Positions 55,309 through 59,169 of a DNA stretch of 64,000 nucleotides are shown here, in pieces (the stretch's first letter is position 1; each line of letters opens with the position of its first letter). Source of the DNA: Octopus vulgaris (Eukaryota); contig OX597821.1 of the NCBI GenBank assembly GCA_951406725.2, positions 39,370,001-39,434,000 of the forward strand, in the 5' to 3' direction. The notes under the pieces are model-generated. The model searched no databases. It was not told the origin of the DNA and was given only the letters and a program-made list of their open reading frames with translations. A program made the position numbers and the translations under genes.

Positions 55309-58300
55309 TCATGGAGGCTTTCTAGCAACTGCTATTTGGTGCATGAGAGAGTTCGATGCAGCTGCCCTCATCTGCCCCTCCTGCCGTGAAGTTGGTTCAT
55401 CTGGGACACCTGACAGGAAGAGATCCAGCTTCATTTTAAAGACATCTGTATCCACCCCATGCAGGTCTCTCAGGTTCTTCGGGAGGATATTGAAGAGCTG
55501 TGGGCCTCGGAAGCCCAGGCTATCACAGAATCTTGTCCTACATCTTGATGGCAGGTTTGGAGTCCTAGGCACCACGCAGTGGCGCCCAGTTCTGGCATTT
55601 GCGTAACTCTCGATGCCAAAGTTCAGGACACTTCCCTCCAGGATCTTCCAGATGTATATTATGGCATATCTTTCCCGCCTACGCTCCAGGGAATATAATT
55701 TTAATCTCTTGAGTCTTTCCCAGTAGCTTACATTCTGCATAGAGGCTATCTTCTTTGTGTAGCTTCGTTGGATCGCCTCAAGTTCTGTGATCAACTTGAC
55801 ACTGGATGGTGACCATAGCTGAGAGCAATAGTCAAAGTGGCTTAGGACAAGTGTCTTCCAGAGGACCATCATGGTTTCTTGTTCTCTTGTTCTAAAGGTT
55901 CTAAGAATCCATCCAGCCAGCCGTCTACATTTCATTGTCAGTTTAGCAACATGTACATGAAAGGTCGCGTCATCACTCATGTGAATACCAAGGTCACGCA
56001 CTGATTGTGCCTCTGGGATTGCAATCCCTCCGGGTCCAGTGTATTCATTGGGTATTGCATTCAGTTTTGCATGCTGATAGTATAAAGCTTGAAACTTTCC
56101 AGCATTGAACTGCATGCTATTCTTTTCAGCCCACTTGTATATTTCGTCCAGCTCACATTGCAGGTGTTTAGTGTCCTCAGGGTTCTGTATTGCCTGTGAG
56201 ACTTTTGTATCATCTGCATAACTTGTGATCGTGGCTCTCTGCGTGGCTGAGGGCATGTCTGAGAGGGCCATTATGAACAGTAGTGGTCCCAGAACAGTGC
56301 CCTGCGGAACACCGCTCACTATTTGTGTGTTAATGGAGGTGGCCCCATTGGCTACTACCACCTGACTTCTATCCTTCAGAAAGTCATGAAGCCATTCTCC
56401 CAGTTTTCCAACTATGTTGAGATCACGCAGTTTGTGACATATCATTCCATGATCGACTTTATCAAAGGCCTTTGCAAAGTCGAGATATATCACTTCCACA
56501 TTTGAGTGGTTGAGCAGCCGTTTCAGCACCCAGTCATAGTGTTGTAGGAGCTGAGTTAAACAGCTTCTCCCTGGTCGGAAACCATGTTGGGTGTCGGGCA
56601 GCAGGTCATTCTCTTCAAGGAAGGTGATCAGCTTCCTTCTGACTATTCGTTCCATGACCTTGCTGATGTGTGAGGTCAGAGAGATAGGTCTATAGTTCTT
56701 GGCTTCCGCTCTGCTACCTCCTTTATGAATGGGGCATATTTTACCTTCCTTCAGTTTTCCTGGAAGTTTGCCAGCTGCAAGGAAGCTCTGAAAGAGGAAC
56801 TGCAGTGGTCTTGCTAGGACTCTCTTACATGCTTTTAGGAGGATTGCCGGGAATCCATCGGGGCCAGTAGCTGAGTCTGTTTTCATTTCATCTATAGCCT
56901 TGGTTACATCGTCTTCCTTTATATCGATGTAATCTATCGTCGCCGCCTCTGATTTTATATCTGCAGTGGTAAAAAAGTCAGTTGGATTGGTGATTTGGAG
57001 ATGCCCAAGGGGTGGAGTGAAAACACTCTTGAATTGCTCATTCAGTATTTCACTTACCCTCATTGGTTTTCCTGTAAGTGTGCCATCCTTTTCAAGGAGT
57101 GGCCCTATTCTACAGTGCACTGTAGCTGTTTCTTTGGCATACCTGTAGAAAGCTCTGGGGTTAGATTTTATGTTTTCTATAGCCCAGGCTTCTTTGTCTG
57201 CTCTTTCTTTTTCATGGGAGAGTTGCAGACATTTTTCGATTTCCAACAGTTTTATTTTTAGGCGGGACTTTTCACTGCTTTCAATCTGTTTGTTTAGGCG
57301 ATTTGAAAATTTCGTACGCCGTCTCATTAAAATTTTCCTCTCTCTGGGGATTTTGTTCTTGTGTACAGTGGCCTTTCTCTCTGGGACACATTTGTAGCAT
57401 ATGGCTTGCATTACAGACATGAATTGTTGAAGTTTCACATCGATGTCTGGCGAGGAGAGACATTCAGGCCAGTTTTGTTTGAGGATCTCTTTCTCAATTT
57501 GTTTCCAGTTTGCCTTATGGTAGTTCAAGCTGGAAAGATTTTGAGGGTTTCTTGTAGGCTGCATGTCCGTGCTCTCTTTTGGCCCATACATGGTCAGCTC
57601 TATCATGTTGTGATCCGAGAGTAGTGTCGGTGTCACTTTCACATTATGGATGAGATCCATGTCATTTGTGAAGCAGAGATCCAGTGTGTTACCTGCCCTG
57701 GTTGGTTGGAGTATTACCTGCTCCATGTACAGGGTGTTGATGAGGTTCAGGAGGGACCTCGCCTGTCCTCGTTCACATCTTGTCATTCCTGGGAGAGAAA
57801 GGCCCTCGGGCCATCTGACATTGGGCAGATTGAAGTCTCCCATAAGAAGCACACCTATGTGTTGTTCTAATGTGGTTAGAATTTCTTCTATTTTTATAAG
57901 GCAGTCTTCGAACTTGCCCACATGGCTTGGGGCATCTGGAGGGCGATATGTAGCACACACAACTACATCAAGTTGCCTAATATGTACAATTAGTGTGTCA
58001 CACACCGAGTTTGAGTATGACAAGAGGACCTGGGGTGTGAGGTCCTCACGGATGTACATAGCAACACCTCCATGACTCCTTTCTTTCCTGTCGGTCCGTA
58101 GTACAGCATACTGTGGTATGTGTAACTCCGCATCTGCTATGTCCGGTTTCAGGTGCGTTTCTGTAAGTGCTATGCATAAGGCTTGATTGCATGCAACAAA
58201 GTCTCTCAGGAACGGGATCTTTGTCCTGTTACTGAGTGTTTGCAGTCCTCTGATGTTCAGTAGGAGTATCGAGGTGAGGTGTACGTTGTTGCCGGCGGTG

Positions 58301-59169
58301 TCCATCCTGTGTCTGTTTGCTGTGGTGGTCTGGTATATAGTGGGTAGTCCCACCTGCGGGCTTGGTTTTGATGAAGCCAGGTCAGCTGCTGTACAATCTT
58401 TTGTGCCATGCACAAAAAAAGATTGTTGCTCAGCAGCTGCTCTTTCGACAACATCATGTTGGCTGTTTGTGGCGCGCACAACATCTGCGTACCTCCGCTT
58501 TGGGGCAGGTGGTGCGTAGTCCATCCCTTTTCTTTGTGTTGATGGTTTGTCCATCTGCCTCGTGTCTCTGTGGCAGGGTCCCCGATGTGCAAAGCGGCAG
58601 CCTGCACCTTCCTTTCCGTGCCAGCAGGAACCTCTCAGGTAGAACATACACACCCGTGTGCGCTGTTTGGTTCCATCCTTTGCGGTTCCACTTCTACTCC
58701 TGGTTGTTTCACTCTTTGGTCCTGCTTGAGCTTTTTCTTTTCCTTTAGCTCTTCCAGTCCTTCTTTTAGTTCTTCTTCCTCCCTCTACCTCTTCACCGGG
58801 TTCTCCGTCTCCATGGCCCTTGCTGCCGGTTGGAGAACTTGCACCTGGGTTCACTTCCCGGGCAGGTTTCTCATTCAAAACCTCCTCCTGGGCGTCCACC
58901 AGGTGGGGGTGACTTCTTTCATCGTCTCCATTCTTGCCATCTTTGCCCCGCTCGTTCTCAAAGATGGCATCAAGTGCGCCAATGTGCGACCGTACAAGCG
59001 CATATGAGCGCACGAATTCCTGTCTCTTTCGCTCCATCTGAGCCGCTGTCCTCTTGTAGCCTCTGCTCTTCAGCGCAGCCGCAATCACCTCGCTAGGGCT
59101 ATCTCCGCCGGCGCACTCCCATGCTCGTACGAATAAATCCAGCTCGTCACGTCTCCATGCTCTGGACAT
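55309..59169 (-). CDS. 1286-aa LINE polyprotein: Myb/SANT-like domain, CCCH zinc finger, APE endonuclease, reverse transcriptase
   Basis: APE motifs LLNIRGL, LTETHL, YRPP, GDFNLP, LDLCF, SDH; RT motifs [53 protein letters not shown]1-type C-terminus [19 protein letters not shown]. Confidence 0.95.

Follow-up and report, generated by a model that had tools for sequence, protein, structure and literature searches.

The 64,000-nucleotide (nt) stretch of the Octopus vulgaris genome analyzed here (hereafter the window; contig OX597821.1, positions 39,370,001 to 39,434,000) contains a minus-strand non-long terminal repeat (non-LTR) retrotransposon, or long interspersed nuclear element (LINE), with an apurinic/apyrimidinic endonuclease (APE) and a reverse transcriptase (RT). 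As assembled, this octopus LINE consists of one open reading frame (ORF) of 1286 amino acids (55309..59169, minus strand), which runs through 1286 codons from an ATG at 59169 to a stop codon at 55309‒55311 and is followed by an (ATCA)n tail. ORF1 is fused to ORF2 in this copy via the seventh T of a T-run. The family has six Ts, with which ORF1 is a protein of 303 amino acids (58257..59169) and overlaps ORF2, in the −1 frame, by 163 nt (58257..58419), both frames being open. The overlap is headed by the heptamer U_UUU_UUG. Judging from the comparison of related loci, the heptamer signal is conserved across a large LINE clade and very likely functional, and we consider it quite probable that programmed −1 ribosomal frameshifting at this site makes a minor ORF1-APE-RT fusion.

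The heptamer is kept in phase across a LINE clade

An alignment search with the endonuclease collected 80 metagenome loci at 26‒44% identity. In the maximum-likelihood tree of 76 APE domains, from which eleven loci were excluded as too short, the window groups with six database proteins and 24 loci in a clade of 31 rows with a support of 99/98. An in-phase heptamer lies 0‒105 nt after the last ORF2-frame stop in 17 of the 21 evaluable clade loci (T_TTT_TTA in 16 and T_TTT_TTG in one), against 0.11 in-phase loci expected by shuffling, and out-of-phase heptamers number zero; the loci are related by descent, and these counts, like the residue counts below, are not independent. As for the four clade loci lacking the heptamer, the equivalent position of L005 reads G_TTT_TTC, the sequences of L011 and L015 begin only downstream of it, and L022 has degenerated. 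Outside the clade, none of the 39 evaluable loci has a heptamer at that position (two have one in phase elsewhere and three out of phase), and the ORF1 frames are mixed (+1, 0, and −1).

The run consists of exactly six Ts in 16 of the 17 relatives, always in the X_XXY_YYZ phase and ending in a purine. Given that x-Phe-Leu is kept, the heptamer codons would arise by chance with a probability near 0.035 at each locus (the geometric mean for 19 loci, two of them outside the clade). The octopus site (58413..58420, minus strand; T7-G in the window copy and T6-G in the family) has the layout of heptamer-type frameshift sites, with X_XXY_YYZ in phase with ORF1 and the −1 frame of ORF2 closed just 5′ and open 3′. 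In the T6 reading, the TGA that closes the ORF2 frame (58430..58432) lies 10 nt 5′ of the heptamer; the upstream ORF2-frame stop is 0‒105 nt away in 18 relatives, and their overlaps span 94‒646 nt. An ATG between the heptamer and the catalytic Asn is absent in 10 of the 17 scored relatives; L008 stands outside this count, since its Asn motif was not located, and its linker does contain AUGs.

A different arrangement was observed in LINEs outside the clade (L028, L034‒L037, L039, L052, L058‒L063, L065, L069, L071, and L076), where ORF2 is in the +1 frame with short overlaps of 23‒122 nt. Several of them have no ATG before the endonuclease, which suggests a separate type of ORF2 start.

ORF1 tails point to a nucleotide constraint

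ORF1 of the clade loci typically has three CCCH-type fingers and sometimes a weak PHD match, followed by Phe-Leu and a helix-like stretch. A profile search with ORF1 returned 3274 clusters at 50% identity, and Phe-Leu is present in the tail of 147 of the best 150 representatives, a count favored by the fact that Phe-Leu formed part of the search profile. The preceding residue is Ser, Asp, His, Asn, Ala, Pro, Thr, or Tyr, with 35 Asp and no Glu, 17 Asn and one Lys, and 23 His and no Gln. Its codon is unable to end in U in 1 of 147 cases, versus 26% at nearby positions, and one position earlier Gln is found 22 times versus twice for His. Since this residue is chemically mixed and yet nearly always has a codon that can end in U, a nucleotide constraint is indicated, and a protein constraint explains the pattern poorly. 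The residue after Phe-Leu is Glu, Asp, Gly, Ala, or Val in 136 of the 147 (ORF1 matches P0150‒P0299), which implies a G directly after the heptamer; this G is present in 14 of the 16 UUA loci, and the octopus family has U there.

The tail of the octopus ORF1 is led by Phe-Leu in the frame entered after the T-run and opens with a Phe-Leu-x-Met pattern as in the ORF1 tails of the relatives, although the similarity is weak. Family variants bear on whether this frame is used. From 60 variants, the 40 best supported were listed, and 14 of these lie in the overlap; eight of them leave the protein of the ORF1-tail frame unchanged and two that of the ORF2 frame (binomial P 0.01‒0.03), and none makes a stop in either frame. 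Since the variants favor the ORF1-tail frame, the alternative frame is real coding sequence. Fused proteins were found neither among the best 150 ORF1 matches, which reach at most 686 amino acids, nor among the best 120 ORF2 matches, which reach at most 1120 amino acids in a search allowing 1810.

Six Ts are the state of the octopus family

The first-pass annotation, made from the letters of the window, had pointed to the A7 at 58414‒58420 (sense codons CAA TCT TTT TTT GTG), a 57-nt inverted repeat around it (58383‒58439), an alternative frame FLCMAQ...PRYSY* down to a stop at 58257‒58259, and an ATG at 58305. All of these are present, the repeat letter for letter and the ATG 46 nt 5′ of that stop. 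It had also proposed that one T fewer would give a two-ORF layout with a slippery heptamer and had named a count of the T-run in other copies and the conservation of the two overlapping frames as checks. Both checks are in line with the proposal: the family has the predicted layout, the heptamer is kept in phase across a deep clade, and the overlap variants behave as described above.

The state of the T-run was read from contigs of public sequencing runs. At least half of the words of the element are held by 20 of the 24 listed runs, and none of the 24 is on record as an RNA run, so that they say nothing on expression. In a wide comparison, one A is left out at 58414 in four of four runs, at 12‒43% of the summed depth in three deep runs; this ratio is misleading, since contigs ending inside the run were counted as ungapped. 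In a narrow comparison with all records listed of runs X4 (eight records), X11 (six), and X6 (two), none shows A7. Of these 16 records, the four that cross the run all have one A fewer; another nine end at 58419, their loose ends opening with the bases beyond the run; and the other three start at 58415. A high-copy T7 allele, as the depth ratios had implied, was dropped because the crossing records show T6. X6 record 23 (444 nt) has one A fewer and is otherwise identical to the window sequence, X3 record 29 has T6 too, and seven of the eight listed records of run X1 are gapped. T6 is the family state, and the seventh T is rare or private.

A second window-only base was found at 58366, where the other base stands at 100% in four of four runs. 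Since this position is a homopolymer boundary, where sequencing errors often lie, it leans toward a sequencing error. The fused copy had been ascribed either to a fixed fusion or to a sequencing error. We slightly favor a one-copy homopolymer error of the assembly, while a real private insertion is a serious possibility that we place somewhat below an even chance; a spreading fused subfamily, which the records do not support, is highly improbable. The T7 copy is of small importance; its value, if it is real, would be as a "locked" control supplied by nature.

A stable hairpin surrounds the octopus site

The T-run had been placed inside a hairpin. The hairpin (58383..58439, minus strand) is real, and its layout can be refined: the slippery site lies in the 5′ arm, with the T-run as a bulge opposite A4. 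Folded over 121 nt, it reaches −45.3 kcal/mol (z −4.3), and none of 200 shuffles is as stable. It is the most stable of the 797 70-nt windows of the element, although narrowly (−30.6 vs −30.1 kcal/mol for the next). The runner-up fold, at 58841‒58910 (minus strand), lies inside ORF1. The fold at the site is far stronger in the octopus LINE (−31.7) than in 18 relatives (−2.6 to −23.7). The last base of the octopus heptamer, the G at 58413 (minus strand), pairs with a C in the hairpin; as a speculation, it is conceivable that this G is a fixed A-to-I edit in an octopod.

A role of the hairpin as a classic 3′ stimulator was ruled out, since it contains the slip site and the remainder 3′ of the ribosome amounts to −2.5 to −3.3 kcal/mol over 40 nt. 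A ribosome on the slip site would have unwound the hairpin, which may modulate slippage or be incidental. That the long hairpin tunes slippage in octopods, or is open to RNA editing there, seems a rather doubtful proposition.

In the relatives, the stretch immediately 3′ of the site has the lowest mean folding energy (−9.2 vs about −5). There, 13 of 19 sequences are more stable than their synonymous shuffles (mean z −1.05), and several relatives have stems starting at +6 to +8. Canonical stimulators start 5‒9 nt after the heptamer (PMC5009743; this and the other papers cited are represented by excerpts). Long-range pairing with the 3′ end was considered as well. In two of nine tested sequences, namely the window and L007, the best 60-nt duplex maps close to the end of ORF2, and a perfect helix ranks top at the 3′ end in one of eight (L007, 10 bp), the best one of the window lying 1 kb inside. 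Such pairing is unsupported as a general feature.

Frameshifting and its alternatives

In the mechanism we favor, an HIV-type heptamer where the ORF1/ORF2 overlap begins would let a minority of ribosomes slip back one base. The slipped ribosomes would make the ORF1-endonuclease-reverse transcriptase fusion and most ribosomes would finish ORF1, giving a low ORF2:ORF1 ratio as in Gag-Pol. The −1 product had been equated with the fused protein of the window copy. The two would have the same length; by the usual slippage rule, they may differ at one residue (S-F-L-V vs S-F-F-V). The fusion would keep the zinc finger(s) and lose the C-terminal helix and tail of ORF1, and since a Pfam search of the element found no protease domain, it would stay whole. 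On a wider scale, it is likely that an ancient LINE lineage of very large size, seemingly without a name (the 3274 ORF1 clusters, with CCCH fingers and often a PHD-like domain), makes an uncleaved Gag-Pol-like fusion at U_UUU_UUA.

If this is true, the signals would form one of the largest collections of −1 frameshift sites in eukaryotes, and an ORF1-tethered RT would be implied; L1 makes ORF2p as a separate protein. ORF2 translation from bicistronic LINE RNA is settled for few elements only, and with a conserved, easily mutated HIV-type signal in a deep LINE clade, a short reporter cassette could address the question. The clade also supplies many natural U_UUU_UUA contexts for stimulator studies. 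Annotation is affected too, as ORF2 proteins are called with starts past the catalytic Asn; this is the case for 8 of 62 related ORF2 proteins whose sequence extends to the first endonuclease motif, a set that includes near-duplicate cluster members.

Several observations weigh against frameshifting or against the evidence given for it, including the shared descent of the loci and the composition of the ORF1 search profile mentioned above. The octopus heptamer ends in G, not in A as in most relatives. No 3′ stimulator was found in the octopus family, where folding of the sequence beyond the site does not surpass that of shuffled versions (z +1.0 to +1.1), and RNAalifold gave no consensus structure for 12 relatives. 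A hand-drawn 6-bp helix is paired in 62.5% of cells, above all slid controls, but was drawn from some of the same sequences. As to the T-run, a strict bridging rule of 31 letters per side is satisfied by X6 record 23 only. One of the eight listed X1 records is ungapped (depth 38.7, four substitutions), with 209 further X1 records outside the listing, and loose ends in the wide comparison hint, from a low-agreement consensus, at diverged subfamilies with five Ts only. The remaining points of this kind are AUG codons near the ORF1 stop, in the majority allele of the octopus family and in the linkers of relatives.

These AUG codons would allow ORF2 to be made by termination-reinitiation or internal initiation, with the heptamer a relic or a by-product of the conserved Phe-Leu motif, which we regard as unlikely. 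The majority family allele has an ATG 10 nt 5′ of the ORF1 stop (58267..58269), a possible reinitiation codon that reads ATA in the window copy. The ATG at 58303..58305 is in frame with ORF2, and its Met is kept in P0001, an 82%-identical relative. A linker AUG is present in 7 of the 17 scored relatives, four of which have it 2‒5 nt beyond the stop's first base (at +2 in L007, L012, and L020, as a TGATG/TAATG-type overlap, and at +5 in L027), and stop-start coupling is established for SART1 (PMC2699510). However, 10 of the 17 relatives have no such AUG, and reinitiation needs neither a −1 frame that is open for 94‒646 nt from the heptamer nor a codon ending in U ahead of Phe. SART1-type coupling was not seen in the octopus family, where the AUG closest to the stop is 46 nt 5′ of it in the window and 10 nt 5′ of it in the majority allele, although three relatives do have an overlapping stop-start. 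The same three, L007, L012, and L020, also carry the slippery heptamer, which suggests two possible routes to ORF2; reinitiation and frameshifting could coexist.

Slippage by the ribosome or by a polymerase had both been suggested for the family, and the ribosomal form fits better. Under polymerase slippage, RNA polymerase or the RT of the element would stutter in the run of Ts and insert an additional U; the fusion would be made from T7 transcripts, which would now and then be returned to the genome and so yield the window copy. This would account for a T7 in an otherwise intact 3.9-kb ORF and for the ungapped X1 record. It fits poorly with a run of exactly six Ts in 16 of the 17 relatives, always in the X_XXY_YYZ phase and with a purine end, as slippage by a polymerase is usually seen on longer runs and does not depend on codon phase. 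If RT came from T7 RNAs only, new copies would often be T7, yet this holds for none of the 16 fully listed records, and we consider this route very unlikely. A true single-ORF LINE, or an active fused subfamily marked by T7, is extremely improbable. The intact 1286 codons speak for it, as does the low share of depth (12‒43%) with an A left out in three runs; that ratio counts contigs ending in the run as ungapped, and the crossing records show T6. In addition, the family variants favor the ORF1-tail frame, a fused protein is absent from the best ORF2 and ORF1 matches, and the second window-only difference lies at a homopolymer boundary.

Comparison with known systems

Heptamer −1 shifting is a textbook feature of retroviruses and of numerous LTR elements, and HIV-1 gag-pol uses a −1 frameshift at U_UUU_UUA (PMC5009743). 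The same heptamer is found in 16 relatives in the same X_XXY_YYZ phase, and an upstream ORF with an RNA-binding zinc finger precedes an RT in the −1 frame, as in HIV-1. The pairing between sequences 5′ and 3′ of the HIV shift site loosely resembles the octopus hairpin, and 5′ inhibitory stem-loops are also described (PMC5009743). Unlike HIV-1, the octopus LINE is a non-LTR element with an APE, no protease domain was found in it, no conserved 3′ stem-loop was found, and the octopus family has UUG. Among non-LTR elements, the excerpt lists HeT-A as frameshifting, TART as open, and mammalian LINEs as using initiation of an unconventional or unknown type (PMC5009743). Dictyostelium TRE5-A and TRE3-A are, like the octopus LINE, APE-RT elements, and a −1 frameshift is stated to be needed for their ORF2 (PMC5911963). 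They differ in being amoebal and tRNA-gene-targeting and in their C-terminal zinc finger and oligo(A) tail, and the figure legend names no slippery site. SART1, which uses UAAUG translational coupling (PMC2699510), and mammalian L1 perform the same task of making ORF2 from a bicistronic LINE RNA. Their ORF2p is a separate product of (re)initiation, and their ORFs overlap little or not at all, whereas in the octopus LINE a slippery site stands at the head of a long −1 overlap.

The octopus LINE resembles the CR1 group in having APE and RT, no RNase H match, and a short tandem-repeat tail (PMC4120745, PMC13343379). ORF1 types described for that group are RRM/CCHC, transposase 22, PHD, and esterase (PMC4120745, PMC13343379). 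CR1-Zenon has no ORF1 and a poly-A tail (PMC13343379), whereas the octopus LINE has an ORF1 and an (ATCA)n tail. The octopus element RTE-2_OV is a single ORF of about 1109 amino acids with a C2H2 finger, of the RTE clade (PMC9115989), and differs from the two overlapping ORFs and the CCCH finger in ORF1 seen here. The words "CCCH" and "frameshift" are absent from the main texts, as available, of PMC4120745, PMC13343379, and PMC9115989; the excerpts of PMC4700185 and PMC7175516 mention frameshifts for LTR elements only; and motif searches in part of the survey supplements (including PMC10294476) matched no named reference element. This frameshift signal was not found reported for this clade in the literature covered, and subscription papers, Repbase entries, and further supplements could hold one.

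Features of the element and its surroundings

The APE domain (approximately 57601..58257, minus strand) precedes the RT domain (55984..56730, minus strand; RVT_1, E 3.7e-30), and the Pfam families PF14529, PF03372, and PF00078 score above cut-off. The best PDB matches of the element are L1 ORF2p (E 1.6e-24), its motifs after the RT presumably resemble those of CR1, and its sole named close protein match is from the octopod Argonauta hians (64% identity). A 3′ tail of (ATCA)n repeats (55216..55240, minus strand) runs into an AT microsatellite; no target-site duplication was recognized by eye, the flanks being simple repeats.

Rfam returned six matches in all, every one under the gathering score. 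The ORF1 word search was negative in all 837 candidates, viral contigs gave none for the pattern and none of 38 for the protein, and 66 prokaryotic genomes gave none. A 22-nt match in a Bacteroidetes bin was rejected as chance, since BLAST similarity is absent.

The octopus ORF1 has a weak Myb/SANT-like N-terminus and one CCCH finger (58550‒59169, minus strand), both below the Pfam cut-off, compared with three fingers and sometimes a PHD-like domain in the relatives. A domain swap in the octopus lineage is a possible origin of this difference. The window DNA is AT- and microsatellite-rich. Directly 5′ of the element lies an AT-rich satellite (59286‒60327 and about 60250‒61030) with nested periods of 54, 91, 108, and 311, in which a unit of roughly 360 nt is duplicated. 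A short relic of the RT region of the same element, with 76% identity, is located at 51560‒51632.

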